In this document: positions 1 through 14,413 of the stretch, in pieces | Layout: each line of letters opens with the position of its first letter | How positions within the stretch are numbered: position 1 is the first letter of the stretch | IMG/VR virus record: IMGVR_UViG_3300012277_000051 | Span: 4,041-68,040 of that record | Strand: one strand, 5' to 3' | DNA from: a virus | DNA length: 64,000 bases | Notes under the pieces: generated by a model | What the model was told of the DNA's origin: nothing | What the model saw: only the letters and a program-made list of their open reading frames with translations | Database searches by the model: none | Position numbers and translations under genes: made by a program

Positions 1-565
1 AAGTCATAAGTATTATTGGGATAAAGACACATCAAGCAATATTCATTATTATAATGGTTGGAAGACAAACAAAAGTTGGTTCATTAATGAAAAGGTCATA
101 ATACCCCTTTCAAGTTGGGATTCAATATGGAATCAGTTTAGAATAAACGATTATAAGATCGTAAGAAAATTACAGGATATCGAAAAGTGCTTCAATTATC
201 TTGACGGTGGATTAACTGATGCTATTGACTTAAAAGAAACATTGGAATTCTCACAGGAGTACGGTGAGACAAGGAATATCACTCTAAAGTATTTCAACAT
301 AACATTTTATAAAAAGGGAACCTGCCATATTACATTTACTAATCCAGAACTATTAAAGAAGTTCAATATTTTCGGTTCACAGAAAAAAGGCTGGCTTCCT
401 CCTTCTTATGGTAAGAAGCAGTACAAGGACATGACATCAGAAGAAAAGGCTGTAGTAAACGAATTTGAGGGCGAGAAAGAGTATAGCAAGGTAATGAGTG
501 ACACTAAGTATTATCTATTCGACGGAAACAGCAGTATAAACTTATTAGAAGACAAGACAGCATAA
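1..565 (+). CDS. C-terminal part of a larger ORF that enters from upstream of the window; function unknown
   Basis: Open frame continuous from position 2 with no start in window; ends at the TAA at 563-565. Confidence 0.4.
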   Translation, partial: SHKYYWDKDTSSNIHYYNGWKTNKSWFINEKVIIPLSSWDSIWNQFRINDYKIVRKLQDIEKCFNYLDGGLTDAIDLKETLEFSQEYGETRNITLKYFNITFYKKGTCHITFTNPELLKKFNIFGSQKKGWLPPSYGKKQYKDMTSEEKAVVNEFEGEKEYSKVMSDTKYYLFDGNSSINLLEDKTA

Positions 566-611
566 AAGCGGATAAAAAGTAAGTTTCATTTGATGAATGG
601 AGGAAAATAAA

Positions 612-908
612 ATGATTTCAAATTTATCTCAATTAAAGAAAGCAATTAACAATGGGGCAATGTTCAAAATAATTAAACACTACATTAAGCCAGAATATGC
701 TGGACAGATAAGAAAGCCAAACAAAATTCAGACCAATGGATTATACTCTATTGTTCCAGGCGAACCAGATAACCTAGTAACCAAAGCAAATGGTGGAAGA
801 GGTTCATGGATAGAATATGGTAAAGCAAGTGATTGGACTTTTGAAAATGGAATCTGTACACAATACTGTCATGGTAGGGCTGTATGGGAAATTACAATTG
901 TAGAATAG
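612..908 (+). CDS. hypothetical protein
   Basis: ORF track 597..908; GGAGG 8 nt upstream of the ATG at 612. Confidence 0.45.
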   Translation: MISNLSQLKKAINNGAMFKIIKHYIKPEYAGQIRKPNKIQTNGLYSIVPGEPDNLVTKANGGRGSWIEYGKASDWTFENGICTQYCHGRAVWEITIVE

Positions 909-969
909 AATAAAATGCACGTTTCCTTTGGATGAGTATGTAGAATTCTGTAATATTTGTTTAATAGTA

Positions 970-998
970 TTGTAAGTAGCAACATTTTATTATAATAT
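970..998 (+). promoter_or_regulatory. sigma70-like promoter candidate (TTGTAA-N17-TAATAT) upstream of the GGDEF gene
   Basis: -35/-10 spacing read from the sequence. Confidence 0.3.
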
Positions 999-1041
999 AA
1001 CGTTAAGACTTTATTATAATATGTTTTAGGAGATTCAATAT

Positions 1042-1920
1042 ATGATTGAAAAGATAACTTTAAATAAATTACAGAAGAATTTAGATTTTTTTCATAAAAT
1101 GTATGACGTGGTACGACTTATAGATCCCATTAATAAAAGAGTAATAGAATACCGTAGCAATGGTACAGAGCAGACAAACGAAATTTGCTACTCTTATTGG
1201 GTAAGTGGACAGATTTGTGAAAACTGCGTTTCAATGAGAGCACATCGTGAACAGAAGAGTTTTATAAAATTAGAGCATAGCCCAAAGGCAGTTATACTGG
1301 TTACAGCCATACCGATAGATTCAGTCCAAGAACCCGTAGTTTTGGAGCTATTTAAAAATGCAACAGATACTATGATGATTGGCTCAGGCGAGTATAGCAA
1401 AGGAGAGGTATTATTTAATGCTGTCCAGGATATGAGCAACATGATAATCCGAGACGAACTGACATCTCTATACAATCGTAGATTTATTGAAGAACGTTTG
1501 CCGGCCGACATCGTAACTGCCGTAACTAAACAAAAACCATTGTCATTAATTTTCATAGATATCGATAATATGAAAATAACAAATGATACTTGGGGTCATC
1601 CTGCTGGAGACAAACTCTTAAAATGTGCATCGAAAATAATTCAAGGAAGTATTCGAAGTGAAACAGATTGGGTTGCTCGATACGGAGGGGATGAATTTCT
1701 AGTATGTCTAAATAATGCTAATAATGAGGCTGCACTTCGTGTTTCTAAACAGATTGAGAATAATTTTAGAAAAGCTATGCTTTCTGTAGAAGATATTGAA
1801 ATAACGATTATGGCATCACTTGGCGTAATTACAATGCCAAAGTCAGGATTAACAGCGGAAGAGCTAATAACTTTGGCCGATAAAAATATGTATGTTTCAA
1901 AAGAACTTAATAGAAGTTAA
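1042..1920 (+). CDS. GGDEF-domain diguanylate cyclase with an N-terminal Cys-rich sensor-like domain
   Basis: C-terminal domain contains RYGGDEFLV (intact GGDEF), the DIDNMKxxND and GHPAGD motifs typical of the GGDEF fold. Confidence 0.85.
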   Translation: MIEKITLNKLQKNLDFFHKMYDVVRLIDPINKRVIEYRSNGTEQTNEICYSYWVSGQICENCVSMRAHREQKSFIKLEHSPKAVILVTAIPIDSVQEPVVLELFKNATDTMMIGSGEYSKGEVLFNAVQDMSNMIIRDELTSLYNRRFIEERLPADIVTAVTKQKPLSLIFIDIDNMKITNDTWGHPAGDKLLKCASKIIQGSIRSETDWVARYGGDEFLVCLNNANNEAALRVSKQIENNFRKAMLSVEDIEITIMASLGVITMPKSGLTAEELITLADKNMYVSKELNRS

Positions 1921-1954
1921 AGAGTAAATGTGAAAATTCCATAATCTAAACTAA

Positions 1955-1988
1955 GCAATCGGAGAATATATAACCGGTTGCTTTTATT
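1955..1988 (+). terminator. rho-independent terminator (8-bp stem with one G-U pair, then a T-run)
   Basis: gcaatcgg...ccggttgc followed by ttttatt. Confidence 0.5.
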
Positions 1989-2090
1989 ATGCTTAAAATC
2001 AGATAAATAAAATACATGTTTCTTTAACTAACAATAAGAAAGGAATTGTAATATGAAAAAATTGTAAATATCAATATATGTAAGGTTAAG

Positions 2091-2119
2091 TTGACAATGG
2101 AATGGTATTATGATAATAT
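2091..2119 (+). promoter_or_regulatory. sigma70-like promoter TTGACA-N17-TAATAT for the XRE/def operon, flanked by TAAGGTTAA direct repeats
   Basis: Consensus -35; repeat copies at about 2081 and 2127. Confidence 0.45.
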
Positions 2120-2165
2120 TTTCCTGTAAGGTTAACGTTACATATAGGAAGGTAGAACAAACATA

Positions 2166-2420
2166 ATGAAAAATAAAGTTCGTCAATTGCGAGAAGTATT
2201 GGGTATGACTCAAGAACAATTGGGTGAAAAAGTAGGAACATCAAGACAGGCCATAAATGCAATTGAAACAGAAAAAAATGAGCCATCCATATGGCTTGCG
2301 CATGACATAGCACAAGTGTTCAATGTACCGATTGAAAGTGTTTTCTTATTTGAAGAAAGTGAACGAAAATCACGTGCGGATATCAGTAGGAGGTTTGCAT
2401 ATGGCACTAAGAGAAATTAG
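2166..2420 (+). CDS. XRE-family helix-turn-helix transcriptional regulator (Cro/CI-like)
   Basis: LREVLGMTQEQLGEKVGTSRQAINAIETEKNEPS HTH signature; RBS aggaagg. Confidence 0.85.
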   Translation: MKNKVRQLREVLGMTQEQLGEKVGTSRQAINAIETEKNEPSIWLAHDIAQVFNVPIESVFLFEESERKSRADISRRFAYGTKRN

Positions 2421-2859
2421 AATGGTTGATGATCAAATTTTACGCAAAGTAAGCAAACATGTTGATAAGGTTGATGATCATACTAGAGAAACTCTTAACG
2501 ATATGGTAGAGACAATGTATAATACAGAAAATGGAGGTGGATTAGCCGCGTGTCAAGTCGGTATATTGCGCCGTTTAGTTGTAATTGATATGGGCCAAGG
2601 CTTATTAAAGTTGGTTAACCCTCAAATTGTTGAATCTGAAGGAGAGCAACTGGTTATTGAGGGGTGCTTAAGCTGTCCAGGTATATGGGGCAGAGTACGG
2701 AGACCAAAAAGAGTATTAGTTAAGGCACTTGATGAAAATGGAGAAGCTATAACAATTGAGGCTTTTGATGAATTTGCAAAGTGCCTTTGCCATGAAACTG
2801 ACCATTTAGATGGAGTTTTATTTACAGATAAAATAATTGAGTATTTAGACATCAAATAG
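2401..2859 (+). CDS. def: peptide deformylase
   Basis: GGGLAACQVG (motif I), EGCLS (motif II), CHETDHLDG (HExxH motif III); start moved to the internal ATG at 2401 with an AGGAGG RBS. Confidence 0.85.
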   Translation: MALREIRMVDDQILRKVSKHVDKVDDHTRETLNDMVETMYNTENGGGLAACQVGILRRLVVIDMGQGLLKLVNPQIVESEGEQLVIEGCLSCPGIWGRVRRPKRVLVKALDENGEAITIEAFDEFAKCLCHETDHLDGVLFTDKIIEYLDIK

Positions 2860-2926
2860 TTTTCGAATTGCATTGTAGCATATAACTGCCAACTAACATA
2901 GCAGTTTTTGAATGCGGCTTTAAAAA

Positions 2927-2960
2927 CCTTCCAATGGTAGTGAGATTGGAAGGTTTTTTG
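2927..2960 (+). terminator. rho-independent terminator
   Basis: ccttccaat/attggaagg 9-bp stem then tttttt. Confidence 0.6.
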
Positions 2961-3009
2961 TGAATGCAAATTGAGACAATGAAAAATAGATTTTAAAGAG
3001 GAAAACAAA

Positions 3010-3264
3010 ATGTTAGTACAAAAACATAGAGAATATGAAAAAAGTAGTAAGGAAGGTTGTTTTTCCGTTGGTCAAAGTTTGAAAGAAATATATTCTGATT
3101 TAAATAGGTATTGTGAATTACATTCAAATAAAAGTGTTTGGTACTATATACACAAAGTCAGGCCAAGTAAGATTAATCTTCGACCAGAGTATATGATGGA
3201 AATTGAATTAATCACAAAAGAAAATAGCGGTTATATAATGATAGGATACGAAAAAGCACAATAA
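3010..3264 (+). CDS. hypothetical protein
   Basis: ORF track; RBS gaggaaa. Confidence 0.45.
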   Translation: MLVQKHREYEKSSKEGCFSVGQSLKEIYSDLNRYCELHSNKSVWYYIHKVRPSKINLRPEYMMEIELITKENSGYIMIGYEKAQ

Positions 3265-3297
3265 AAGACAGGATTTATTTAAGAAAGGAGAATAATC

Positions 3298-3492
3298 ATG
3301 GTTAAAAAAGAAAAAGTAAAAATTGTGACAGAAGATATTAGAATGGGAGGAGAAAATGGGAGTTATAAAGCTTCATCTTCTTTTGGCGGTGGATATGATG
3401 ATTTTCAATTTCCATTAACAGTATCATTTTATGAACATGGAAATTACACTGTTAGAATTGAAGGGAAGAAAGCCATTGTTGAAAAAATATAG
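3298..3492 (+). CDS. hypothetical protein
   Basis: ORF track; RBS aaggagaa. Confidence 0.45.
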   Translation: MVKKEKVKIVTEDIRMGGENGSYKASSSFGGGYDDFQFPLTVSFYEHGNYTVRIEGKKAIVEKI

Positions 3493-3540
3493 TAACATCC
3501 ATAGTTATCGGTAAACTAAAACCGTTAGAAAGGCAAGGAT

Positions 3541-3732
3541 ATGTTTGAATTACGAAACTATATCATTAATGAATTTCCAGCAGCTTTTACAACACCATAC
3601 AGTAGAGAAATGCTAGATAATATTTTAGAAGAATCTGAAAAGATTGAAAGTATAAGCGCAAGGTGTGAATGGATAAGTATGATGATTCCAGAAATCAGAT
3701 TAAATGAAATAAGGGATATTTTATTACAATAA
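3541..3732 (+). CDS. hypothetical protein
   Basis: ORF track; RBS aaggcaagg. Confidence 0.4.
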   Translation: MFELRNYIINEFPAAFTTPYSREMLDNILEESEKIESISARCEWISMMIPEIRLNEIRDILLQ

Positions 3733-3766
3733 AAAGCACATTTTATTAATAAATAAGGAGGTAATC

Positions 3767-4003
3767 ATGGCGAACACGGTTAGAAACTATGAAAATACAT
3801 ACAGTTATGGAACTGCAACACATAAGACTAAAACAACTCAATTAAATAAGTACCGTAAAATCATAGGAAGCATTTTATTATTGCTTTCTATTTTTGTACT
3901 CTTTATGCTGCCAGACCAGGACGGAAACTGGACGCTGGCAGCATTGCTGATAATTGTAAGCGCAGTTTTATTTGCACAGACCGGAGGATTAAAACATGAA
4001 TAG
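3767..4003 (+). CDS. small membrane protein (two predicted TM helices)
   Basis: Hydrophobic stretches IIGSILLLLSIFVLFML and LAALLIIVSAVLF; RBS aaggagg. Confidence 0.5.
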   Translation: MANTVRNYENTYSYGTATHKTKTTQLNKYRKIIGSILLLLSIFVLFMLPDQDGNWTLAALLIIVSAVLFAQTGGLKHE

Positions 4004-4297
4004 CGATATAAAATTTCATTACATGAAAAACAAGGAAGGGAAAATTGAAATGTATGCAAATGGTATATACATATCTACATTTGATAACTTCACGGAAATT
4101 CTCGCCTTACATAGCCTTATATCTTAATACATAGCCTTGTCGGTAATCCGAAAGGATAGGCCGTGCTGCGAAAGTAAACAAGGCATTCCCGGCAGTCTAA
4201 AAGTGATTGCTGCTTACCACGGAGAATTAGTGGTCGATCTGGCTTAGGTCACTAACCGCACATAATTAGCGGTAGATTATTATAGGAGGTGTTTCGT
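4004..4297 (+). ncRNA. about 290-nt non-coding leader with direct repeats TACATAGCCTT x2 (about 4108 and 4128) and hairpins; candidate cis-regulatory RNA or operator region
   Basis: No credible ORF on either strand; repeats 20 bp apart; hairpins ttagtg...cactaa and accgc...gcggt immediately before the RBS of the 4298 gene. Confidence 0.3.
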
Positions 4298-4486
4298 ATG
4301 GGATATGGAGAATTAGAGCAATGTAAGGACTTTGACAAGCTGAAGGCAGTGTTTGATAATGATATGCTTGGATACTGTGAAAGGCAGCTAGAGGTGTATT
4401 TAAGCGGATCTGAGGAAAGGTCAGCGGTTGTTTGTTGGTGGGAAGGTATGATGAGCACTGATGATTTTATTGAGATGTGTAGTTAA
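4298..4486 (+). CDS. hypothetical protein
   Basis: ATG 7 nt after taggaggtg; the track's 4289 GTG start overlaps the RBS. Confidence 0.45.
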   Translation: MGYGELEQCKDFDKLKAVFDNDMLGYCERQLEVYLSGSEERSAVVCWWEGMMSTDDFIEMCS

Positions 4487-4509
4487 TAGATGAGGTATGG
4501 GAGGTTATT

Positions 4510-4746
4510 ATGTTAGAAATTACAAAGAAAAATTGGAAATATATTAAAGTAAAAGGAAAGTGTCCACGTTGTGGGAATAAGGTTGCAATTGGTAGTTGCG
4601 GGTTTTATGGAGAACCTGGATCATATGAATTTCTTCCAGTTTGCACCAACGAAGATTGTGAAGAAGCATATGGATATGGTGGGACAATTAAAATAAGATT
4701 CATAAATCATAGAACGGTAAAAATAGATGGATTGTGGGAAGCATAG
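4510..4746 (+). CDS. zinc-ribbon protein (CPRCG...C...C)
   Basis: ORF track; CxxC pair; RBS gggagg. Confidence 0.45.
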   Translation: MLEITKKNWKYIKVKGKCPRCGNKVAIGSCGFYGEPGSYEFLPVCTNEDCEEAYGYGGTIKIRFINHRTVKIDGLWEA

Positions 4747-5015
4747 AGGCAGAAAAACTTTTGCTCACGAGTGCTTTTATTGGAGTAAGGTATGGTAATG
4801 AGGAAATAGGGAAATATGTTGCTATGAAGTTTAATTGGATACTTACTTTATTGAAAGGAGAATATATGAACCCAATTGATATACCGTTAAAAGAGATACG
4901 CGAATGGTTTGTTTATGCTAAAGAGTATAAATGGATTGAAAATAAATATGATATCACTAGAGAACAGATTGAAGAATGTATTCAAAGGTACGTTGAAGAA
5001 GTAATGAGCAAATAG
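4734..5015 (+). CDS. hypothetical protein (start uncertain; an internal ATG at 4866 has a better RBS)
   Basis: ORF track. Confidence 0.3.
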   Translation: MGSIEAEKLLLTSAFIGVRYGNEEIGKYVAMKFNWILTLLKGEYMNPIDIPLKEIREWFVYAKEYKWIENKYDITREQIEECIQRYVEEVMSK

Positions 5016-5043
5016 AATGCTGATTTGAAAGGAGAGTTTAAAA

Positions 5044-5202
5044 ATGACGTTCAAAAAATGGTTTAAAAAAAAATATAACCCACAAAAAGATGATGATTAT
5101 TTATTGTATAAGTATGAGTTTGATTTACTTTATCTTTCATATGTTTCATATTGTAAAGAAAAAGGTATGATATATCAAAAAGAAAGTGAAGCCTTGATGT
5201 AA
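5044..5202 (+). CDS. small hypothetical protein (52 aa), not in the ORF track
   Basis: ATG 7 nt after aaaggagag; open to the TAA. Confidence 0.3.
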   Translation: MTFKKWFKKKYNPQKDDDYLLYKYEFDLLYLSYVSYCKEKGMIYQKESEALM

Positions 5203-5246
5203 AGAGCCAACAAAAGAGATATTTTAAGGAGGAGTGATTTTGATTA

Positions 5247-5435
5247 ATGTGTACATGGTGTGATGAGTTAAACGAAGAAAAAGAGAAGATAACAACGGAT
5301 ACAATCAAGCTTTCACGTTCTGGTTATTATAATTATCGAATTCCAATATATTGCTGTCCTGTCTGTGGTGATAAGCTAAAGAAATATGAGGGATATTCGT
5401 TAGAACAGTTATTGAATGGTTGCGCGCCACAATAG
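5247..5435 (+). CDS. zinc-ribbon protein (CxxC...CPVCG)
   Basis: ORF track; RBS aaggagg. Confidence 0.45.
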   Translation: MCTWCDELNEEKEKITTDTIKLSRSGYYNYRIPIYCCPVCGDKLKKYEGYSLEQLLNGCAPQ

Positions 5436-5509
5436 GTACATATATCCACAATTTCAAATTAGAAAGGAAGTGAATTTCCAAAAGAAGAATTTTTAAGAAT
5501 AATTGATAA

Positions 5510-5545
5510 AACCCAACTACCTTGATTTTGTAGTTGGGTTTTTAT
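5510..5545 (+). terminator. rho-independent terminator upstream of the integrase; a possible attP lies in the 5450-5620 non-coding stretch
   Basis: aacccaactac...gtagttgggtt stem then ttttta. Confidence 0.55.
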
Positions 5546-5623
5546 AGTATCAAATTAATTTAACGAAATTTATTAATAAAACAATCATTTATTGCAAGTA
5601 GGATTCTGAATGGAGGTAATATC

Positions 5624-6652
5624 ATGACATACCATGAACAAAACGATATCCAGAATATAAAGAAACTCAGATGTATTATATCCTCATTGCCAGATTATTG
5701 CGAAGACTTCTTTCGAGGGATTGAGCCGAGAACTTCTTCCAAGACAAGGATTGCTTATGCAACGGATCTGAAGTTGTTTTTCGATTATCTATTCAGAAGC
5801 GGTCAAGCTTCAGACATTGATTCAATCACTCTTGATATGCTATCAAGTTTGAAAATCATAGACTTTGAAAAATATATGGAGTGGCTAAAATGTTGGACTG
5901 ATAAATCTGGTAATGAAAACGTCAACGGAGAGAAAGCTATTGCAAGAAAGTTGTCTACTTTAAAAGCCTTCTACAAATATTTTCAGCAGAACGAAAGGAT
6001 AATTACTAATTCAGCATCACTTGTGCAGCCACCAAAATTGCACGACAAAGAGATTATACGACTTGATAGCGACGAAATGAAGGCATTTATTCAGGCGGTA
6101 GAAACCGGTGGGAGTTTAAATGGTAGAGAGCGAGCCTTCTTTGAAATAACACGGAAGCGTGACCTTGCAATAATTATATTACTACTTACTACTGGAATCA
6201 GGGTATCTGAATGTGTGGGGCTAGATATTGACAATGTGGACATAAAAAATAGCGGGATCAAAGTATTTCGTAAAGGTGGAAAGGAATCTACTGTTTATTT
6301 CAGTGATGATACCAAAGAAGTATTAGAGTCTTATATAGAAGAACGGAAACAGGTGGAATCAATCAAAGGGCATGAAAATGCTCTATTTTTATCTTCACAG
6401 AACAAACGGATTTCTACCAGAAGTGTAGAGGGCATAGTTCCAAAGTATGCAAAGTTGGCAGGAATCAAGAAGAACGTTACTCCTCATACGCTGCGTAGAA
6501 GCTATGGAACAGCTCTATATAACGCTACAGGAGACATTTATCTTGTGGCTGGTACTTTGGGTCATGCAGATATCAACACCGCAAAACGGCACTATGTAGT
6601 ACTGGAAGATGAGAGAAAAAGAGATAATAGGAATGCTGTTAAATTAAGATAA
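5624..6652 (+). CDS. int: tyrosine recombinase / phage integrase (XerC/D-like)
   Basis: C-terminal HTLRRSYGTALY...LGHADINTAKRHY (R-H-R-Y catalytic motif); N-terminal SAM-like core-binding domain. Confidence 0.9.
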   Translation: MTYHEQNDIQNIKKLRCIISSLPDYCEDFFRGIEPRTSSKTRIAYATDLKLFFDYLFRSGQASDIDSITLDMLSSLKIIDFEKYMEWLKCWTDKSGNENVNGEKAIARKLSTLKAFYKYFQQNERIITNSASLVQPPKLHDKEIIRLDSDEMKAFIQAVETGGSLNGRERAFFEITRKRDLAIIILLLTTGIRVSECVGLDIDNVDIKNSGIKVFRKGGKESTVYFSDDTKEVLESYIEERKQVESIKGHENALFLSSQNKRISTRSVEGIVPKYAKLAGIKKNVTPHTLRRSYGTALYNATGDIYLVAGTLGHADINTAKRHYVVLEDERKRDNRNAVKLR

Positions 6653-6687
6653 AAGACATGTTTAATTAGAAGGGAGAAATAATAGTA

Positions 6688-6825
6688 TGAACAAGAATAA
6701 TCAGCCGGTGTTAAATCCCGGAGACAAGATAATTTATAATGAAAACGATCCGCATGTATGGTATGATAATATAAAAGAAGCACTTGAAAACGCAGGACTT
6801 ACATTGTCAAAGGAGGTAGCATAGT
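6688..6825 (+). CDS. small hypothetical protein (45 aa), not in the ORF track
   Basis: ATG after aagggagaaataatagt; plus-strand, non-overlapping. Confidence 0.3.
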
Positions 6826-7069
6826 GGCAGGACTTATTGTTATTATTTTAATCTTTGCATATTACAAATATGCAACCCGAAGGCCGAAATATGGAACACA
6901 AGAATATCTTGATTGGAAATATAAAGATATGCCAGGAGATAAGGAATATTGGAAAGCAATAGAAAAAAAGAATATGGGCTGCACATACGGTGATATTCCA
7001 ATGACTCCATCTGAAAAGGCAGCTTATAATAAAGTGGAAAAAGAAAATGGAAGATCTGGAATTGAATAA
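6824..7069 (+). CDS. small membrane-anchored protein
   Basis: GTG start after aaggaggtagcata; N-terminal TM helix. Confidence 0.4.
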   Translation: MAGLIVIILIFAYYKYATRRPKYGTQEYLDWKYKDMPGDKEYWKAIEKKNMGCTYGDIPMTPSEKAAYNKVEKENGRSGIE

Positions 7070-7080
7070 CTTTTGAACAG

Positions 7081-7106
7081 AGGACTAAGAAATTAGTCCT
7101 TTTTTC
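7081..7106 (+). terminator. rho-independent terminator
   Basis: aggactaa-gaaa-ttagtcct then ttttt. Confidence 0.65.
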
Positions 7107-7138
7107 GTGCAACAAAATATGGAAAAGGAGATGTGACT

Positions 7139-8266
7139 ATGGAAAATAGAAGCTGGAGTTATACGGTGGAAGACGTTATCAAAAGAATGAATAAGAAAAC
7201 ATTATCTTTTGACTTCCCGATCCAGAGGGAGTCGGGGCAGTGGGACAAAGAGCAGAAGAGTTTATTTATAGACACTATATTTAACGGGTACTTGGTGCCA
7301 GAAGTTTACATTATTAAGGAAGGAACCGATGATTTTTGCCCCATGTCGGTTCTTGATGGTAAGCAGAGGCTTACAACCATCTACGATTATTACAATGATG
7401 GATTTAAGTTATCAAAAGATTTAGATTCAATTACTATAAATGACTTTAGATTCGATGATGAAAAAAATAGGATTGATAATATCAAGACTTATGAAATAGC
7501 GAATAAATCGTACTCACAGCTTGACGATTCACTGAAAGAGATTTTTAAGAGTTTTAAGATTAATGCTAAATTGCTGGCAGGTTATACAGATGAGCAAGTA
7601 GAGGAACAGTTCTACAGGCTGAATAATGGTAGTGTATTTACAAAGGCACAGAAAGCCACCGTAAAACTTGGTACAGAACTTGCAGGGAAGATTAAAGAGA
7701 TTGAAGAAAATGACTTCTTTACAAATCGTGCCTGCTTTACCAATTCTCAGAAGAAACGTGGAGAGGTTACGAGCTGTATTTTACAGACGCTTATGTTGCT
7801 GACTGGATATAATTACAAGAATTTTGGGGCGAATGAAGTATTAAAATTTGCTGAATATTTTAACGAAAATCCAGACTATAAGCAACTGGAATACTGTAGT
7901 GAACTCTTTGATAAATTATTTTCGGTTCTTCCATACAGCGAAGATATTGATAAGCAATTAAAGAAAATACATATCCCTATGCTGATTATGAACCTTGACG
8001 CTATCGACGGTTTAGACGTGGACTATGAGCTTACAGATGACGAATACAAGGCGTTCTTAAACAAATGGTTTGAGGTATGGAATGAAACATCTGGATACAC
8101 TGATTTCTGTGGCACAGGCTCCACAGGCAAGTCCAAGGTGGAAGGCAGAGTTTCAATCATGACCAGGGAATTAAGGGATTATGTAATCAAATTATCTATA
8201 AAAAATGGAAACGAGGAAAATGATTATGGAGAAGAGGAAGATTTCAGAACTGAAACCGCATCCTAA
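7139..8266 (+). CDS. DUF262-family ParB/Srx-fold protein (GmrSD N-terminal-like)
   Basis: DGKQRLTT motif (the DUF262 DGQQR signature) about 75 aa from the N-terminus; ATG at 7139, 8 nt after aaaggag. Confidence 0.65.
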   Translation: MENRSWSYTVEDVIKRMNKKTLSFDFPIQRESGQWDKEQKSLFIDTIFNGYLVPEVYIIKEGTDDFCPMSVLDGKQRLTTIYDYYNDGFKLSKDLDSITINDFRFDDEKNRIDNIKTYEIANKSYSQLDDSLKEIFKSFKINAKLLAGYTDEQVEEQFYRLNNGSVFTKAQKATVKLGTELAGKIKEIEENDFFTNRACFTNSQKKRGEVTSCILQTLMLLTGYNYKNFGANEVLKFAEYFNENPDYKQLEYCSELFDKLFSVLPYSEDIDKQLKKIHIPMLIMNLDAIDGLDVDYELTDDEYKAFLNKWFEVWNETSGYTDFCGTGSTGKSKVEGRVSIMTRELRDYVIKLSIKNGNEENDYGEEEDFRTETAS

Positions 8267-9386
8267 AAATGTAGAAATCTATGGCTACAACGAAGACATA
8301 TCTGACTTGGTGGAAAAAATAAGCAGAAGCCACCGTGTTCATACGATGGTGATTAATTCAGACGGGTATATTTTGGCTGGTCATCGCCGTCATCGTGTCT
8401 GCCTGCAATTGGGAATTAAAGAAGTTGATGTTGAGATAAGAGATTTTAATTCACCAGAAGAAGAGATTGAGTTTATTATCGATGACAATGCTACTAGGGA
8501 TAAGACGGTGGAACAGAAGTCCAGAGAAGCGAAGGAACTAAAGAGAATCGAGAAGCCTTTAGCTATAAAGAGAATGGCAATTGGGGGAAAAGGCGGATTT
8601 AAAGGTACGGCGAATTCGCCGTACCTTATAGAACAAATAGAACAAGTAGATCAAGGAGAAACACGCGATATTGTTGCCCGTAAAGTAGGGCTTCGGTCAG
8701 GTAGAGAAGCTGAGAGGGCCATAACAACAGTGGAAATCATTGATAAACTCAATGAAGATGGCAGAACTGAAGATGCTGACTTGGTAAAAAGTGTCTTAAA
8801 TAATGGTTCTGTATCAGCCGCCGAAGAATTAGCCAGGAATATTGACAAGGTGGAAATTCCTGAAGACGCTATCGATTTGGTTAAGGCAGGAAAGCGCAGT
8901 CCTCACTCTTATATAGAGAAAGCTAAAGCAAAAACAAAGCAGAAGGCCCTTTCAGAGGGTGATCCCATTCAGCCTGAAACCAAGAAATGCAATTGCTGTG
9001 GTAAAGAACTTCCCCTATATGAATTTACAGGAGAGAGTAACACCTGTAGAGAATGCCGTGCTGCTAAGGACAGGGAACGTAGGTCTGGTATTTTTAAAGA
9101 TTCCATGGGTAATCTCATTGAGTATGATAAATCTATTGTCGGCAGTGATGTAATGTTAGAGGTTATTGCTGATTTGAAAAACGAGAAAGATACCAAACAA
9201 GGAATCAATTATGGGATAGAGTTTGAACTATTTTTGTCTAATCTTAATGACTACCTTTTTGCCAATCAGAAATTTATTGATGGTGCTATATTTTTGAATA
9301 TGCCATCTGATATAAAAAATAAATTCAAGGAGGAGATGACTAGATTATCGGATTTTACGCAAGTGTTAAAGAAAAATTTAAAATAA
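8220..9386 (+). CDS. ParB-like nuclease-domain protein with an internal CxxC...CxxC region
   Basis: N-terminal KPHPKN...ILAGHRRHRV (ParB N-terminal domain arginine box); overlaps the upstream gene end. Confidence 0.65.
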   Translation: MIMEKRKISELKPHPKNVEIYGYNEDISDLVEKISRSHRVHTMVINSDGYILAGHRRHRVCLQLGIKEVDVEIRDFNSPEEEIEFIIDDNATRDKTVEQKSREAKELKRIEKPLAIKRMAIGGKGGFKGTANSPYLIEQIEQVDQGETRDIVARKVGLRSGREAERAITTVEIIDKLNEDGRTEDADLVKSVLNNGSVSAAEELARNIDKVEIPEDAIDLVKAGKRSPHSYIEKAKAKTKQKALSEGDPIQPETKKCNCCGKELPLYEFTGESNTCRECRAAKDRERRSGIFKDSMGNLIEYDKSIVGSDVMLEVIADLKNEKDTKQGINYGIEFELFLSNLNDYLFANQKFIDGAIFLNMPSDIKNKFKEEMTRLSDFTQVLKKNLK

Positions 9387-9421
9387 TAATATCAAGAGGA
9401 AAAGAAAAGGAGAACGAAATT

Positions 9422-10309
9422 ATGAGAACAATGAACAAGGAAAGAGAATTAACAGTAAGGGAATTATTAAATGAGAAGCGCGGTATTCGTGCAGTTGCAA
9501 GCAAGACCATCATATCTTCTTCTGAAGAAAATATGAAAATTGAAAATGTCAAAATTATGACACTTAATACCCTTGACTTAGTCTCATCTCAGCCATATCA
9601 GAGAGATTTGGATCAGAAGAAAATCGCCCAGATTGTATCAAATTTTGATAAGCATAAACTTGGAATTCCAAAAGTAAGTTATCGAGGTGGTAAATATTAT
9701 GTTTATGATGGTCAGCACAGGATTGCGGCTCTGAGAATTATCAATGGAAATACTGATTGCCTTGTACAGTGTGAGGTACATTTTGGCTTGACCTATGAAG
9801 ATGAAGCGGCTTATTTTGCCCAGCAGTATGATGGCGCTACCAGTGTGGATTTGGTTTATAAGTGGAGAGCATGGTATGAGGCAAGAAAAGAGCCGATTTA
9901 CACCATTGTAAATAATGTAGAGAATATTGGTATTGAAGTACCATTTTCTAAGTCAAAGTCAAAGAACCGTATTATTGCATTAAAACAGCTTAATGATATG
10001 TGGAAGAAATTAGGTGCGAGGGATTCTCTGAAATTGCTTGGACTTATGAAGCAGTTTTGGGACGGCGATCAGAATACATATAACAAGAACATCATGGATG
10101 GCATGAAGGAATTTTATTTCACCTACAAGGACGAAATCAAGGAAGATGTATTCCTTAAGCAGATGAAGAAAACGAATCCTTTAAAGATTGAAGTGCGTGG
10201 TAAGTCGGATACAGTCTCTAAGGGCGGCGTGAAATTCGCAAAAGTAATTTGGGATGAATACAATTTTGGGTTACAGAAAAACCGCCTGGACTATAAATTT
10301 AAGGGCTAA
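9422..10309 (+). CDS. DGQHR-domain protein (DndB-like, ParB/Srx superfamily)
   Basis: SQPYQRDLD...YVYDGQHRIAAL motif; RBS aaggagaa. Confidence 0.6.
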   Translation: MRTMNKERELTVRELLNEKRGIRAVASKTIISSSEENMKIENVKIMTLNTLDLVSSQPYQRDLDQKKIAQIVSNFDKHKLGIPKVSYRGGKYYVYDGQHRIAALRIINGNTDCLVQCEVHFGLTYEDEAAYFAQQYDGATSVDLVYKWRAWYEARKEPIYTIVNNVENIGIEVPFSKSKSKNRIIALKQLNDMWKKLGARDSLKLLGLMKQFWDGDQNTYNKNIMDGMKEFYFTYKDEIKEDVFLKQMKKTNPLKIEVRGKSDTVSKGGVKFAKVIWDEYNFGLQKNRLDYKFKG

Positions 10310-10459
10310 TTGATTAGGGTGCATGGTCGTTAAGGCTGTGCACCTATTTATATAGAAGGAGTTTTATGAACAACTGGTTATATGTGTATTATGCATGGTG
10401 TTTGAAGTGTATTAGCGAATCTCAAACTACCCCTATTAAAATAAAAGGAGATCGTCAAA

Positions 10460-11092
10460 ATGAAAATGTCAAATCGTTTCAAAAATAACAGAGAGATTTC
10501 TTCGTACAATAACAGGAGAATTATAAATTTCAGGGATATCAACAAATGTAATGCAATTGAAATTCCGGTGGATAAGATTAAGCTATTGTATCAAATACAT
10601 ATTGATGGATTAAAGCGGTACGATGTTCAAAGAGAGGTTGCATATTATTTTATAAATGAAGAAAGGGTTGAAGGTACGATAATTGTTCATCCAGACCTTG
10701 ATGAGCCAGGGACTTACAATTTAATTACTGGTTGGAAGAATTATGTTGACGCCGATTCAATTGGACAAGACACTATTAAGGCCATTGTCGTTGACTGTAC
10801 ACGAAAAGAATTTAGGAAGATGATTGGTTGCGTTGTTCCTTATGAGTATGTAAGTACAGATGAATTAAAAGTACCGGAAGGATACGCTAAAAGCACTGTA
10901 TGCGAGGGAAAGCTAAATACTATCAGAGAGTACGCAGAACGTCACCATCAGCCTATTAAGCCTATTGTAGTGGATACTGATAATAACATTGTTGATGGGT
11001 ATGCTCAATATGTATATAATAAGGAAGCGAATGTGAAAATGTGTCAGGTTTTGAGATCTCGTAGGAATTTGGGAACTTTTGTTGGTAAGTAA
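10460..11092 (+). CDS. degenerate ParB-N-like domain protein (two ParB-like segments, arginine box lost)
   Basis: IPVDKIKL...YNLITGWKNYVDADSIGQDTIKAIVV and HQPIKPIVVDTDNNIVDGYAQY resemble the ParB N-terminal fold; RBS aaaaggag. Confidence 0.4.
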   Translation: MKMSNRFKNNREISSYNNRRIINFRDINKCNAIEIPVDKIKLLYQIHIDGLKRYDVQREVAYYFINEERVEGTIIVHPDLDEPGTYNLITGWKNYVDADSIGQDTIKAIVVDCTRKEFRKMIGCVVPYEYVSTDELKVPEGYAKSTVCEGKLNTIREYAERHHQPIKPIVVDTDNNIVDGYAQYVYNKEANVKMCQVLRSRRNLGTFVGK

Positions 11093-11161
11093 AATACATA
11101 CATGATATAATAGGGGCGGTGGGTGAGACTACTGCTTCTATTATATAGAAGGGAATGGAAT

Positions 11162-11761
11162 ATGGGATATATTATTTGGGATAAAGAAAAGGGGAAATAT
11201 ATTTCTGTTGTAGATGGTGGTTGGTTTTCTGTCGTCGACAATATAGAAAAGGCTTTTGTATGGAAAAATATCAACAAGGCCAATAACACAATATCTACAA
11301 TCAATAAGAACAAAAATTTTAAAAGACATCATCTGAATTTGGAATTAAAAGAGGTTGTGAGAGATTCTTCTACTTATGATATTGAAGATTGTGAAAATGT
11401 AAATATTGATCTTGAAGATGTGACCGATATGGTAAAAAATATATTTGATTTCACTTCAACGATTGAGAAAAGACGAGTTTATTTGAATCAAGAAATTCAG
11501 ACTTGCAGTTTGGAAATAGCAGATATTGAACATGCAGCTGAATTTTACACGTTAAGTGCCTCACAAGGATATAAACTCTATAAAATGCTTCATGATGTAA
11601 GATGTAAACGAAGAACTTGTAAGGATGAGTTGTTAATTATTGAAGCGGTACTTGAATCAAAACTTAATAGTAAGGAATTAAAGAATGTAGAAAATCGGAT
11701 AAAAGGACTTGATAAAAGGAAATATTTACCAAGGGTAGTCAATGAATTATTCGGAGTGTAA
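11162..11761 (+). CDS. hypothetical protein
   Basis: ORF track 11123..11761 with start moved to the ATG after gaagggaatggaat. Confidence 0.4.
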   Translation: MGYIIWDKEKGKYISVVDGGWFSVVDNIEKAFVWKNINKANNTISTINKNKNFKRHHLNLELKEVVRDSSTYDIEDCENVNIDLEDVTDMVKNIFDFTSTIEKRRVYLNQEIQTCSLEIADIEHAAEFYTLSASQGYKLYKMLHDVRCKRRTCKDELLIIEAVLESKLNSKELKNVENRIKGLDKRKYLPRVVNELFGV

Positions 11762-11807
11762 TTTGCAAGCAAACCTAGATTTACTTAGGAAAGAGAGGGA
11801 TGAATGA

Positions 11808-12089
11808 TTGAATTCTGTAAAGTTAAAAATAGGAAGAAATGTTTTTGATATAGATGAGAATGATGTTGTTATGGATAATGGGGCAATTATTCAAGTAATA
11901 ACCAAGAAGAGTGGGACTGGATGGAATTGGAACATACCTGTAATGAGTAAAAAATTATACGGCGATTTAAAAAAGTTGAACATTTTATATACAAATAAAG
12001 AGCTAGAAGAATATGCATCACAAAGCTATTCTTCTAAAGTAACATTATATAAATTTGATATAGAGAAGATGAAAAATGAAGGATATTAA
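11808..12089 (+). CDS. hypothetical protein (TTG start)
   Basis: ORF track; RBS aagagaggga. Confidence 0.35.
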   Translation: MNSVKLKIGRNVFDIDENDVVMDNGAIIQVITKKSGTGWNWNIPVMSKKLYGDLKKLNILYTNKELEEYASQSYSSKVTLYKFDIEKMKNEGY

Positions 12090-12291
12090 ATTTCAAGCAA
12101 TTCGACATTTAATAAGAATTATAGGAGAAAATATGGAAAAGTACATGAATGAACCGGTGGATTGCAAGTTTACCGATGAGGATATTATAAAAGAATACGG
12201 GCGATTTAATGACATTAAGAGAGTGGCGGCGGCGTTTTGTATAAAGAATAAAGTGGTGAGGCAGATTTTAAAAAGAAATGGGGTATTGTAA
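12076..12291 (+). CDS. small putative DNA-binding protein (C-terminal HTH-like segment)
   Basis: IKRVAAAFCIKNKVVRQILKRNG resembles a resolvase/sigma-type HTH. Confidence 0.35.
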   Translation: MKDIKFQAIRHLIRIIGENMEKYMNEPVDCKFTDEDIIKEYGRFNDIKRVAAAFCIKNKVVRQILKRNGVL

Positions 12292-12515
12292 TGAATCGAG
12301 TGAGGCTTGGAAATAGACTTAAAACTTTAAGAAAACAGCGTGGTTATTCCCAAGAACAACTTGCTAATCTAATTGGTGTAAGTAGATCTACTTTATCAAG
12401 ATACGAGAAAGACAAGACGAGTCCTATGATGGACGTTTTAGAGAAAATGGCAATTCATTTGGATACTACAATAACATGGCTTTGTAGTGAATTTAATTCA
12501 GAATTATTTTTGTAA
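12291..12515 (+). CDS. XRE-family HTH transcriptional regulator
   Basis: LRKQRGYSQEQLANLIGVSRSTLSRYEKDKTSP. Confidence 0.8.
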   Translation: MNRVRLGNRLKTLRKQRGYSQEQLANLIGVSRSTLSRYEKDKTSPMMDVLEKMAIHLDTTITWLCSEFNSELFL

Positions 12516-12559
12516 ATTATTGAGGAAAGTATTGTTTTAAAGGAAAAGGAGTAAACATT

Positions 12560-13252
12560 ATGAGTGGATATAAAAAAGAGCAAACAAAATTTGGTGAAAA
12601 GACAACTCATCCTGCGTACGGTATGTTATCATTTAGTAGAAGAACTGGTGGTAAAACGCCATTGTTTGGTAGCAGTATAGAACATAGAGATACAATTGCT
12701 ATGACGCTTACACATGGAGATATTACCAGAGGTCTAAACTCGGATTGGTATCATGGTAACGAAATTATTGCCGAAGTTGAAATGAGTTACTCTCAATTTG
12801 CAGAAGCAATTACCTCTATGAATATGGGAAGTGGGGTTCCTGTTACCGTGAGAAGAACTGAAAAAGACGGTAGAATTCCAGAATGCGACTTCATAAATAA
12901 AAAGGAACAATTTCAAGATGAACTAAAAGAAAGATTATCTAACGCAACTGAAATGTCTCGTTCTATAATTAAGGAAGTTCAAACGCTTTTTGATGAAAAG
13001 AAAACATTGACTAAGGCAGACAAAGTGGACATTATTAATAAACTTACGAAAGTATCTTCCGAAATAAATGGCAATATCAATTTCACTTACGAAATGTTTA
13101 ATGAACAAATGGATAAGACTGTTATGGAAGCAAAGGGAGAAATCGAAGCATTTTATCAAAATAAAGTGAATTCTATTGCGCAAGCTGCTTTAGTGGAATA
13201 TAAAGACGATTTAATTAGACTGGATAATCCAGTCGAAATTGATTTGAAATGA
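12560..13252 (+). CDS. hypothetical protein
   Basis: ORF track; RBS aaaggagtaaaca. Confidence 0.45.
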   Translation: MSGYKKEQTKFGEKTTHPAYGMLSFSRRTGGKTPLFGSSIEHRDTIAMTLTHGDITRGLNSDWYHGNEIIAEVEMSYSQFAEAITSMNMGSGVPVTVRRTEKDGRIPECDFINKKEQFQDELKERLSNATEMSRSIIKEVQTLFDEKKTLTKADKVDIINKLTKVSSEINGNINFTYEMFNEQMDKTVMEAKGEIEAFYQNKVNSIAQAALVEYKDDLIRLDNPVEIDLK

Positions 13253-13261
13253 TTATTTTAT

Positions 13262-13510
13262 ATGTGGCGGATTTATATGTGGAGATTTTTTATTGAGTTA
13301 TTCATTGAAGGTAGCTATGGTGATTTTGTAGAAGCTGCTGAAGTCCCTGGCGATGGAATACCTGTTTGTAATGATCCAGTAGTGGCAATAGATTTTGAAT
13401 CAGTTGAGGAATTAGAAGACTGGGTTGTTTACAACACATCAATAGTGAAGGGTGAATACGGTATAAAAGGGATATATTATGATGATTACTTTGAAAAAGG
13501 TAAGCATTGA
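13262..13510 (+). CDS. hypothetical protein (start uncertain)
   Basis: ORF track. Confidence 0.3.
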   Translation: MWRIYMWRFFIELFIEGSYGDFVEAAEVPGDGIPVCNDPVVAIDFESVEELEDWVVYNTSIVKGEYGIKGIYYDDYFEKGKH

Positions 13511-13526
13511 TGACAGGAGGATTAGT

Positions 13527-13706
13527 ATGAGGGATCAATTTGGAAGGGTCAATAATAAAGCACAGGCCATTAGAGACTTGGATAAGTTAAGATTGGCTAT
13601 TCTGCTTGATGATATAAAAAAGAATCCAGACAAATATCCGGACAGTAGAAATGATTGGGTAGAGTGGTTGAATGAGGATAGTGGAGACAGAGTGGATCAA
13701 TTATAA
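13527..13706 (+). CDS. hypothetical protein
   Basis: ATG after gacaggaggattagt. Confidence 0.4.
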   Translation: MRDQFGRVNNKAQAIRDLDKLRLAILLDDIKKNPDKYPDSRNDWVEWLNEDSGDRVDQL

Positions 13707-13722
13707 GGAGGAAGGAATTTAT

Positions 13723-13896
13723 ATGAAGTTTTTAGTTATTCTAACTTTTCAAGATGAAAGCAATACGTGGAATTGGTTTGATACAGAAGTAGAGGCTGTT
13801 GATTGGATTAATGGTTATGAAAAAGATTTTTCCGGACAGTATGAGGTATCTGAATTTGTAGAGGTTGATATAAAAAGAAAAATCACATTGAAATAG
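13723..13896 (+). CDS. hypothetical protein
   Basis: ATG after taaggaggaaggaatttat. Confidence 0.4.
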   Translation: MKFLVILTFQDESNTWNWFDTEVEAVDWINGYEKDFSGQYEVSEFVEVDIKRKITLK

Positions 13897-13908
13897 GAGA
13901 TTTCTTAT

Positions 13909-14214
13909 ATGAATAATTTCGAGAAACTTAGAAATGAAACGTCATCTATAGAGGGAATGGCAAAATTATTTTGTTCTCCCGGTTGGGAGGGAACTGGACG
14001 AGTATTTAGTACACATGCTGCTAAGTATTTAGAGAATATGGACGATGCGATTCAGGCAGAAGTTGATTGGTTAAAATCAGAAACTAAGGAAATGGAATTA
14101 GACGCAAACGGAGTAGAATCAATTGAGAAACATCATTGCAGCTTGTGTGGAAAATATATAGAAGAAGATAATATTTCTGTGTGTAATAGGTGTGCGTCAG
14201 AATATAAATTTTAG
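13909..14214 (+). CDS. hypothetical protein with a C-terminal CxxC...CxxC zinc ribbon
   Basis: ORF track; RBS taggagatt. Confidence 0.45.
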   Translation: MNNFEKLRNETSSIEGMAKLFCSPGWEGTGRVFSTHAAKYLENMDDAIQAEVDWLKSETKEMELDANGVESIEKHHCSLCGKYIEEDNISVCNRCASEYKF

Positions 14215-14245
14215 GATGAAATTTGAGATTAATGGAGGGAATAAG

Positions 14246-14413
14246 ATGGGAAATTTTGCATTAGAATTAAAAGATGGTAAGACTGTAGATGTGGTAAAGG
14301 TGAATGATAAAACATTTCGTACTGATATTTATGATGCTAATGGAGAGGGAGAAATTAGTGTTGAAGTTGACAGCAATACTTTTATTGAATGGGTATTATC
14401 TGGAATATGCTAA
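14246..14413 (+). CDS. hypothetical protein
   Basis: ATG after aatggagggaataag. Confidence 0.4.
   Translation: MGNFALELKDGKTVDVVKVNDKTFRTDIYDANGEGEISVEVDSNTFIEWVLSGIC

Follow-up and report, generated by a model that had tools for sequence, protein, structure and literature searches.

A sensor-linked diguanylate cyclase gene as probable moron cargo of a large temperate phage of Clostridia

Why would a virus carry the gene for an enzyme that makes a bacterial second messenger, and does the gene belong to the virus at all? These questions are raised by an open reading frame (ORF) at 1042..1920, on the + strand of a 64,000-nt stretch of the IMG/VR virus record IMGVR_UViG_3300012277_000051 (positions 4,041 to 68,040 of that record), which is referred to below as the window and whose numbering is used throughout. 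The ORF opens with ATG, is complete and encodes a 292-aa protein composed of an N-terminal sensor, a helical linker and a GGDEF domain, that is, a predicted diguanylate cyclase (DGC) producing cyclic di-GMP (c-di-GMP). In our judgement the gene at this locus is quite probably a moron of a large temperate phage whose hosts are Lachnospiraceae-like Clostridia, and its product a diguanylate cyclase under the control of a sensor. The evidence comes from the residues of the catalytic domain, from the recurrence of the gene as a small unit on unrelated backbones and from the gene content of the surrounding element. The most interesting part of the protein is its sensor domain.

The cyclase domain and its Cys-triad sensor

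The product of the ORF, which includes WVARYGGDEFLV and WVARYGGDEF, matches the Pfam GGDEF profile (PF00990) over residues 137-291 with E=1.1e-39, covering profile positions 3-159 of 161 and scoring 136 bits against a cutoff of 23.8, and it matches TIGR00254 with E=2.6e-44 (150.9 bits against a cutoff of 37.4); the GGDEF match is far above chance. The catalytic domain, delimited by these hidden Markov model (HMM) matches, by PDB alignments and by family columns, occupies 1450..1914 on the + strand, which is the strand of all features of the locus located below. Its top sequence matches in the PDB are E. coli DosC (E=2.5e-25) and then a Thermotoga DGC, WspR and PleD, and in the predicted full-length model the per-residue confidence score (pLDDT) is >90 across the domain. 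The sequence shown by the alignments is that of a complete GGDEF domain with all the residues for Mg2+/GTP binding and guanine choice in place: the A-site GGDEF itself (G215-G216-D217-E218-F219, 1684-1698), invariant in all 27 members of a family alignment, the Mg2+-binding D173 (1558-1560) and the guanine-binding N181 and D190 (1582-1584 and 1609-1611), likewise invariant in that alignment, and the phosphate-binding K287 and R291 of the C-terminal helix (1900-1902 and 1912-1914). D173 and K178, both invariant, lie within FIDIDNMK, which aligns to DVDKFK of DosC, and N181 and D190 lie within NDTWGHPAGD, both being identical in the DosC counterpart NDTWGHNTGD. The catalytic positions other than R291 are all invariant across the 27 members, K287 among them, and the position of R291 is K or R in most. 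The usual Phe of the DxDxFK motif is Met here (DIDNMK) and Phe or Leu in other family members. We take D173 to be equivalent to D327 of PleD, K178 to K332, N181 and D190 to N335 and D344, and K287 and R291 to K442 and R446.

The initial annotation had proposed an intact GGDEF cyclase at 1042-1920 and had regarded loss-of-function substitutions elsewhere in the catalytic fold as evidence against it; the proposal is borne out by the full-length PF00990 and TIGR00254 matches and by the retention of every catalytic residue, D173, K178, N181, D190, K287 and R291 included. Judging from these residues, the diguanylate cyclase is intact and probably active. Ser at the position of PleD D344 marks the Hypr GGDEF proteins that make cyclic GMP-AMP (cGAMP), such as GacA. 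The window protein has Asp (D190) there, on which ground a Hypr identity was rejected, and c-di-GMP is therefore the expected product. Compared with the canonical cyclases (PleD, WspR, DosC/DgcO and Thermotoga TM1788), the protein has the same full GGDEF domain, an identical A-site, the same Mg2+-, guanine- and phosphate-binding residues and a sensor joined by a helix. It differs from them in its sensor, which is not a REC, globin, CZB or annotated PAS domain but an unmodelled PAS-like domain with a CX9CX2C motif, in its I-site, and in the location of its gene on a phage.

The inhibitory site of GGDEF proteins is an RxxD motif five residues upstream of GGDEF, which is common but not needed for membership in the class. 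In HMMER alignments the corresponding segment of the window protein is a non-canonical RxxxD, R205-S-E-T-D209 (1654..1668), made one residue longer by an insertion than the RxxD found in DosC (RS-SD) and in the Thermotoga DGC (RR-SD). The family consensus in the 27-member alignment is IRxxxDW, and since RxxxD is thus the consensus at this site, classical product inhibition is possibly weak or absent in the family; for the window protein, feedback inhibition by the product is probably weak or absent given the form of its I-site. Two distant viral members on IMG/VR contigs (L018 and L019) have the same Cys triad and a canonical RRTD I-site. When the window copy is compared with four homologs, of which three are on mobile elements and one is the chromosomal copy L171, the ratio of nonsynonymous to synonymous substitution (dN/dS) is 0.11-0.13 for the whole gene, with ranges of 0.06-0.13 for the sensor and 0.09-0.18 for the cyclase. 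Purifying selection acts on both domains, and because dN/dS is low in each, both halves of the protein are kept functional.

The N-terminal sensor domain (residues 1-~110, 1042..1371) has no match in Pfam and no sequence match in the PDB. Its predicted topology, alpha1-beta1-beta2-beta3-[Cys loop]-alpha2-beta4-beta5-beta6, suggests a divergent PAS-like fold. The domain contains exactly three cysteines, C49 (1186-1188), C59 (1216-1218) and C62 (1225-1227), which form a CX9CX2C triad (1186..1227) in the beta3-alpha2 loop and are a candidate metal, Fe-S or redox site. The linker helix that follows (residues 119-136, 1396..1449, as placed by the secondary structure of the full-length model) is presumed, by analogy, to serve dimerisation and signalling. 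In all, the GGDEF domain is fused through a helix to a domain of predicted PAS-like fold with a conserved CX9CX2C triad. A Cys-rich, sensor-like N-terminal domain of about 150 aa had been noted before; an N-terminal sensor is indeed present, and its description is amended here to a PAS-like domain of ~110 aa with three Cys, followed by a linker of ~20 aa.

This sensor belongs to a large family. An exhaustive HMMER profile search of 1.84 billion cluster representatives retrieved 1,092 proteins at E<=1e-3, of which 535 reach E<=1e-10, chiefly from Clostridia and their relatives. The Cys triad is invariant in the 27 aligned members and 97% conserved per position in the best 150 representatives, in which R25 and E102 are 100% conserved and P29, K76, W53, N61 and P91 are conserved at 94-99%. 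Among ten family proteins of atypical length that were checked, nine still have a GGDEF domain and one has a receiver domain instead; as the Cys-triad domain is nearly always fused to GGDEF, it appears to be a dedicated sensor of c-di-GMP cyclases. Some atypical-length members have extra modules (GerE/LuxR helix-turn-helix (HTH), Spo0E-like, or PocR with AraC), which hint at ties between the Cys-triad sensor family, sporulation control and transcription. The Spo0E-like module is either N- or C-terminal, the GerE/LuxR HTH is C-terminal and the PocR and AraC pair is N-terminal; the members concerned are P0148, P0184, P0188, P0175, P0199, P0206 and P0242.

As to what the triad may do, the PAS domain of Bacillus licheniformis NreB has been described to hold a sensing [2Fe-2S] cluster on only three Cys, arranged as CX2CX11C (PMC13478379). 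Since this PAS domain holds its cluster with three Cys, a cofactor role for the triad is plausible by analogy. The likeness to the Fe-S PAS sensors of the NreB type consists of a PAS-type fold with a small Cys cluster between N- and C-terminal beta-strands. The differences are in the motif, which is CX2CX11CX2C with a [4Fe-4S] cluster in Staphylococcus carnosus NreB, CX2CX11C in the B. licheniformis protein and CX9CX2C here, and in the output, which is a histidine kinase in NreB and GGDEF here, where cofactor binding would be a matter of inference only. Homology of the NreB type was considered and rejected, given the different motif and the lack of any hit below E=0.25 in a profile search of the PDB. 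A 2022 census of sensory inputs to c-di-GMP signalling contains no occurrence of "iron-sulfur" or "Fe-S", and its table of oxygen and redox sensors lists only heme, flavin, hemerythrin and disulfide mechanisms (PMC8846402). As far as we have found, the CX9CX2C PAS-like sensor family, which comprises ~1,100 clusters, has not been described in the literature.

A cassette that recurs on unrelated phage backbones

Comparison of loci delimits a unit of ~1.1 kb, 910-1998, which recurs on unrelated phage backbones and at prophage/chromosome junctions. Its upstream region (910..1041, from the alignment across loci) starts at a left mosaic boundary at ~910, where the shared motif AAAATGCACGTTT is located (912-924). 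Downstream of it are a promoter-like -35 element TTGTAA (970-975) and -10 element TATAAT (991-996) separated by a 15-nt spacer, a 12-nt direct repeat TTATTATAATAT (987-998 and 1011-1022), whose second copy holds another TATAAT, and a ribosome-binding site AGGAG (1028-1032). Roughly 110 nt 5' of the start codon are conserved in the window, in L001, in L003, in the Konateibacter locus L002, in L085 and in L087; by alignment, the region is not conserved in the chromosomal Caproiciproducens copy L088. The gene is followed by a terminator-like hairpin (1953..1992) with a 10-bp stem, AAGCAATCGG (1953-1962) and CCGGTTGCTT (1974-1983), an 11-nt loop and then UUUUAUUAU; the segment 1921-2010, comprising the hairpin and the U-tract, folds with -15.5 kcal/mol (z=-2.1). 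A promoter and a terminator had been attributed earlier to a block opened by the gene, and on the basis of manual reading, cross-locus conservation and folding both are plausible, TTGTAA-15-TATAAT being conserved and the hairpin being followed by a U-tract, although a simple consensus scanner called neither the promoter (15-nt spacer) nor the terminator (loop >8 nt, here 11 nt). The right mosaic boundary of the cassette is at ~1998, where the homology with L003 stops.

The loci with closely related copies differ in their surroundings. In L001 the protein is identical and the match to the window covers only 895-3010 (99.4% nucleotide identity), with unrelated sequence upstream. L003, from the 160-kb contig JGI Ga0615031_0075, encodes a protein 89% identical, and its match to the window is confined to 910-1998 and resumes at 3501. 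On the chromosome of Konateibacter massiliensis (L002) the protein is 78% identical and the nucleotide match extends over 955-1915 at 79%; the order of genes there is NrdD...dUTPase, Hydrolase_2, integrase, a tRNA 3'-fragment GTGGGTTCGAGTCCCATCGGAAGC, the GGDEF gene and then host-like genes (TspO, PdaC, a methyl-accepting chemotaxis protein and an ABC transporter). The tRNA 3' fragment between the prophage integrase and the GGDEF gene is found at 9660-9760 of that locus, near 363.7 kb of the Konateibacter massiliensis record LT860099.1. In a different phage (L085) an 81% copy is located ~4.5 kb downstream of a cassette of XkdX, an r1t-type holin and an M15 endolysin, and in L087 a 71% copy has on one side a prophage that encodes a 1,077-aa DnaE-type polymerase and on the other the host genes ispF-cysS-mrnC-rlmB-sigH; L085 and L087 share only the GGDEF gene with the window. 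A 55% copy in Aminipila has three serine recombinases on one side and MatE and EamA genes on the other, and a 72% copy (L171) and a 68% copy (Caproiciproducens, L088) occur in unremarkable chromosomal surroundings. In its arrangement the GGDEF gene appears to behave as a moron, a self-contained accessory gene, here in the form of a monocistronic cassette.

The initial annotation had placed the gene at the head of a regulatory block, which does not agree with the boundaries at 910 and 1998, as the next cassette (2166..2859, + strand) appears to be mobile in its own right: its XRE-type HTH gene (2166-2420) and the peptide deformylase gene overlapping it (2401-2859; Pfam Pep_deformylase, E=4e-43) are present in L001 and absent from L003. 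This pair has a strong promoter-like site of its own (TTGACA-17-TAATAT with TG, 2091-2119). A deformylase gene is also found ~1.2 kb from the chromosomal GGDEF homolog of Caproiciproducens (L088, 8365-8775).

Carriage of a diguanylate cyclase by a phage or another mobile element is already documented, and the window gene is not unprecedented. GGDEF genes occur in 116 GenBank phage records and 66 IMG/VR loci, the latter found by a family-profile search, and jumbo-size IMG/VR contigs are among the carriers; given these numbers, GGDEF proteins are no rarity among phages. When IMG/VR was queried with the window protein as a single sequence, no close relatives were retrieved. GGDEF proteins are encoded by Bordetella phage LK3 and by Pseudomonas Yuavirus, and LK3 lysogens form hyper-biofilms (PMC8471281). 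In E. coli, dgcX always adjoins lambdoid prophages, and hitchhiking by specialised transduction has been proposed (PMC4287979). DGCs encoded on ICEs (integrative and conjugative elements) and on genomic islands have been reported to change biofilm formation, motility and phage resistance (PMC10672970). The phage and prophage cyclases (LK3, Yuavirus, DgcX, Bacillus phage SP-15 and a Klebsiella prophage) share with the window gene the location of a GGDEF cyclase in or beside a temperate phage, at a prophage end or an accessory site, and their proposed role is lysogenic conversion towards biofilm; they differ from it in that identity is <=40% and restricted to the GGDEF domain, while the Clostridia host and the sensor are different here. 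The cyclases of ICEs and islands (DgcK and DgcL of SXT/R391, Dgc137 of Vibrio alginolyticus VPII) are similar as mobile-element DGC cargo and different in element type, phylum and domain architecture.

The initial annotation had also called for a search for partners of the enzyme and had pointed to a structured leader at 4004-4297 as a possible c-di-GMP-binding element. Neither suggestion was upheld. No PilZ, EAL or HD-GYP domain and no second GGDEF was found among the ~120 window ORFs scanned, and no c-di-GMP-I or c-di-GMP-II (GEMM-I/II) riboswitch was detected in an Rfam scan of the whole window at gathering thresholds, in positions 1-6000 at E<=10 or in the whole window at E<=1. The segment 4004-4297 was rejected as a c-di-GMP element, its fold being no better than that of shuffled sequences (z=-1.1) and Rfam giving no match. 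Because the window encodes no effector, any signal that the enzyme makes must work via host receptors. The 3' half of the 4004-4297 segment, 4115-4300 (+ strand), is a hairpin-rich, GC-richer leader of ~170 nt directly upstream of a small ORF (4289-4486). Its conservation in L001 and L003 is high, apparently above that of the flanking coding DNA; no compensatory changes were seen in the three sequences and Rfam gave no match. An unclassified cis-regulatory RNA is one possible identity for it, a small RNA another.

In a rival reading the enzyme would serve the lytic cycle or induction, in an early takeover in which a flood of c-di-GMP could, for instance, arrest motility or division, remodel the envelope, or interfere with or decoy a cyclic-nucleotide defence. 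The gene lies in an early-looking region of small ORFs, is downstream of an antirepressor in relatives and is on the same strand as the replication module; an alarmone synthetase of the RelA/SpoT type a few kb away in L003 suggests a nucleotide-messenger theme, the degenerate I-site would permit unrestrained synthesis, and the jumbo-size contigs likewise carry GGDEF genes. We nevertheless consider a lytic role unlikely. The promoter-like region and terminator-like hairpin belonging to the gene, and its sites in other phages at prophage ends or behind the lysis cassette, are the classical position of a moron expressed in lysogeny; the conserved sensor under strong purifying selection favours conditional signalling over a blunt takeover; and no sponge or nuclease partner was found in the window. 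To our knowledge, c-di-GMP is not a typical signal of CBASS, Pycsar or Thoeris, and for the part in cyclic-nucleotide immunity that had been suggested earlier, nothing was found linking the gene to immunity. The alarmone synthetase is a 367-aa RelA_SpoT-domain protein of the small-alarmone-synthetase type, encoded on the - strand at 2972-4075 of L003, ~6 kb upstream of the GGDEF gene, and represents a second nucleotide-messenger enzyme in this phage lineage.

The surrounding element

Of the plausible genes in the window, ~97 are on the + strand, the opposite strand having almost none. PHROG and Pfam searches identify a replication and repair set (a DnaB-like helicase, a primase, a RecJ-like exonuclease, a 1,076-aa DnaE-type polymerase, an exoV/Dda-like helicase and an NAD-dependent DNA ligase) and a set related to nucleotide metabolism (an RNA ligase, NrdD/NrdG, a glutaredoxin, a guanylate kinase and a dUTPase). 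In addition, two types of methyltransferase, ParB-like proteins, a PcfJ-like protein, a PemK toxin, an IS605-type TnpB and a tyrosine recombinase (5624-6652, from the PHROG/Pfam scan) are encoded. Many of the families match PHROG only, and the E-values there reach 5.7e-150 for RecJ, 1e-282 for the polymerase, 2.6e-147 for exoV and 3.4e-176 for the ligase. The polymerase is at most 38% identical to those of annotated phages and plasmids and 62-76% identical to those of IMG/VR viral contigs of up to 158 kb; its relatives on Clostridium plasmids show 32-38% identity. In tblastn searches the best matches of the RecJ-like protein are in Geobacillus virus E3 and SPbeta-like phages (36-38%), and those of the PcfJ-like protein are in the 131-kb C. 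difficile phages phiCD211/phiCDIF1296T (47%). A megablast search of positions 1-12000 against GenBank phages gave no match.

The last 10.9 kb of the window recur with 100% identity in the Logan contig L084, which extends past the right edge of the window. There, 0.7-2.8 kb out (10693-12763 of the contig), it encodes an SH3_3/Hydrolase_2 cell-wall hydrolase and an integrase of 440 aa; after these the contig finishes with GGATTTGAACCTGCGAC, the minus-strand 3' end of a truncated tRNA, which by its sequence is likely an att site. The likeness to the large temperate siphoviruses of the SPbeta/phiCD211/phiCDIF1296T type extends to the DnaE-type polymerase, the RecJ/YorK-like exonuclease, NrdDG, the dUTPase and the PcfJ-like protein, as well as to a genome class of >100 kb, integrases and abundant accessory genes; the difference is that protein identity is only 36-47% and that no GenBank phage matches at the nucleotide level. 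The gene content indicates that the window is the arm serving replication and nucleotide metabolism in a large temperate phage of the SPbeta/phiCD211 kind, which is either a prophage or possibly a phage-plasmid. The element is a new lineage, known from metagenomes and IMG/VR contigs only. Because the window lacks capsid, portal and terminase genes, its phage identity is inferred from relatives and gene content. Of the earlier description of the gene as phage-encoded, the phage-like nature of the element and its relation to IMG/VR contigs and SPbeta/phiCD211 phages thus hold, while the identification itself is made in a window free of structural genes.

Could the window instead be a piece of chromosome, megaplasmid or ICE, and the GGDEF protein an ordinary component of cellular signalling? 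The family is overwhelmingly bacterial, with some close members in plain chromosomal settings; the window has no capsid, portal, tail or terminase genes; ParB-like, PcfJ-like, ParM-like, faint TrwB-like, PemK and IS605 TnpB genes are also found on plasmids and ICEs; and there are the polymerase relatives on Clostridium plasmids. The best plasmid match is to a 203-kb C. botulinum plasmid, which we take to be a phage-plasmid of the c-st type and which would count against a non-phage origin. So do the 64 kb of co-oriented genes for DnaE, RecJ, exoV, NAD and RNA ligases, NrdDG, dUTPase and guanylate kinase with a tRNA, a signature of large Firmicutes phages, the best matches to SPbeta-like and phiCD211-like phages and to IMG/VR viral contigs, the 81% copy beside holin, endolysin and XkdX, and the presence of element genes on both sides of the GGDEF gene within mosaic boundaries typical of phage morons. 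A non-phage origin is accordingly judged to be decidedly unlikely.

Several other features of the window may be recorded here. A tRNA-Gln gene (anticodon TTG; 48432-48505, + strand) lies between the DNA ligase and RNA ligase genes, and a glutaredoxin, NrdD, NrdG and dUTPase cluster occupies 60418-63681 (+ strand). The phage guanylate kinase (57164-57694, + strand) could supply the GTP pool, but nothing ties it to the cyclase. The phage genome contains an inserted IS605/IS200-family OrfB (29856-31115, + strand), which is TnpB-like and has a Cas12f1-like TNB domain. Families found in 1-20000 include a PemK/MazF-type toxin, a GmrSD_N restriction-endonuclease-like domain, DUF6551, DUF4942 (242-565) and an amidoligase-like protein (17876-19018); 20000-36500 holds LemA, an SPFH/Band_7 protein, a C-5 cytosine methylase (21729-22640) and a single-stranded DNA-binding protein. 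Directly upstream of the tyrosine recombinase gene, the 6-kb Rfam scan gave a sub-threshold match at 5504-5558 (+ strand) to the Streptococcus small RNA SpF36 (37 bits against a gathering cutoff of 48, E=0.006), which probably reflects a hairpin or terminator and not genuine homology.

A proposed conditional second-messenger moron

That the GGDEF protein is not a c-di-GMP synthase in vivo, and serves as a degenerate receptor or scaffold or as a Hypr-type enzyme making cGAMP or c-di-AMP, is very improbable: the altered I-site and the Met of DIDNMK in place of the usual Phe would fit such a function, but the family has Phe or Leu there in other members, every catalytic and guanine-specifying residue is retained and invariant, the position that determines Hypr identity has Asp as in canonical DGCs, and the HMM match is full-length with a high score.

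For the explanation that we favour, a sensor-regulated cyclase carried as a moron by a large temperate phage, the following course of events is proposed. With sensor and linker as the dimer contacts, two monomers would bring their GTP-loaded GGDEF domains together, and c-di-GMP would be formed. The Cys triad, acting as a metal or Fe-S site or as a thiol switch, would make synthesis track the redox, oxygen, sulfide or metal status of the cell, and the RxxxD I-site would leave little or no feedback inhibition by the product. Driven by its own promoter, the gene would be expressed in the lysogen and raise the c-di-GMP of the host, an instance of lysogenic conversion. In Clostridia, as known from C. 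difficile, c-di-GMP works for the most part through riboswitches, which typically repress flagella and switch on pili and adhesins, and it promotes aggregation. The phage-made signal would thus be expected to act through the c-di-GMP riboswitches and receptors of the host, with altered colonisation behaviour and possibly altered surface receptors for competing phages as the outcome. The gene itself was most likely acquired from the chromosome of a member of the Clostridia, plausibly when a prophage was excised imprecisely, and later traded among phages; capture followed by exchange fits the recurrent sites at prophage/host junctions and the interleaving of chromosomal copies (72% and 68%) with phage-borne ones (100-71%). 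Such a route has also been proposed for E. coli dgcX (PMC4287979).

Several observations weigh against this explanation. The 15-nt spacer of the promoter is non-optimal and was left without a call by the scanner. The GC content of the gene (0.349) and that of its third codon positions (GC3, 0.273) agree with the values of the phage (window GC 0.341; GC3 of phage core genes 0.27-0.35), so that no compositional trace of a recent acquisition is seen. In the sensor, neither a conserved His nor a conserved fourth Cys is found in the best 150 representatives, the Cys loop is the least confident region of the model (pLDDT <50), and the triad is unlike that of NreB in spacing and shares no sequence similarity with it. 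No capsid, portal, tail, terminase, other packaging or lysis genes were detected by the PHROG and Pfam scans of the 64-kb window, ~188 kb of the 252-kb contig lying outside it, and the ParB-like, ParM-like, PcfJ-like and faint TrwB-like matches would also suit a plasmid- or ICE-like biology. Finally, the activity, expression and phenotype ascribed to the cyclase are predictions.

The sensor invites a more far-reaching proposal, which is put forward tentatively and is, in our view, possible rather than probable. The CX9CX2C module may represent a new class of sensor for c-di-GMP synthesis in anaerobic Firmicutes, either binding a cofactor (Fe-S or metal) or acting as a thiol switch, which phages have captured repeatedly and which would link the redox, oxygen, sulfide or iron state of the host to motility, adhesion, sporulation or the exclusion of other phages.

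If the enzyme is active in lysogens, the phage would set the motile or sessile signal, possibly one linked to sporulation, of Clostridia in the gut or in anaerobic digesters, and would do so conditionally, via a sensor of its own. This would be a concrete case of lysogenic conversion by control of a second messenger in a little-known group. The recurrent position of the gene at the junction of prophage and chromosome illustrates how phages pick up and trade the signalling genes of their hosts, and the N-terminal domain defines a large unannotated sensor family, whose ligand would add a new input to c-di-GMP signalling.

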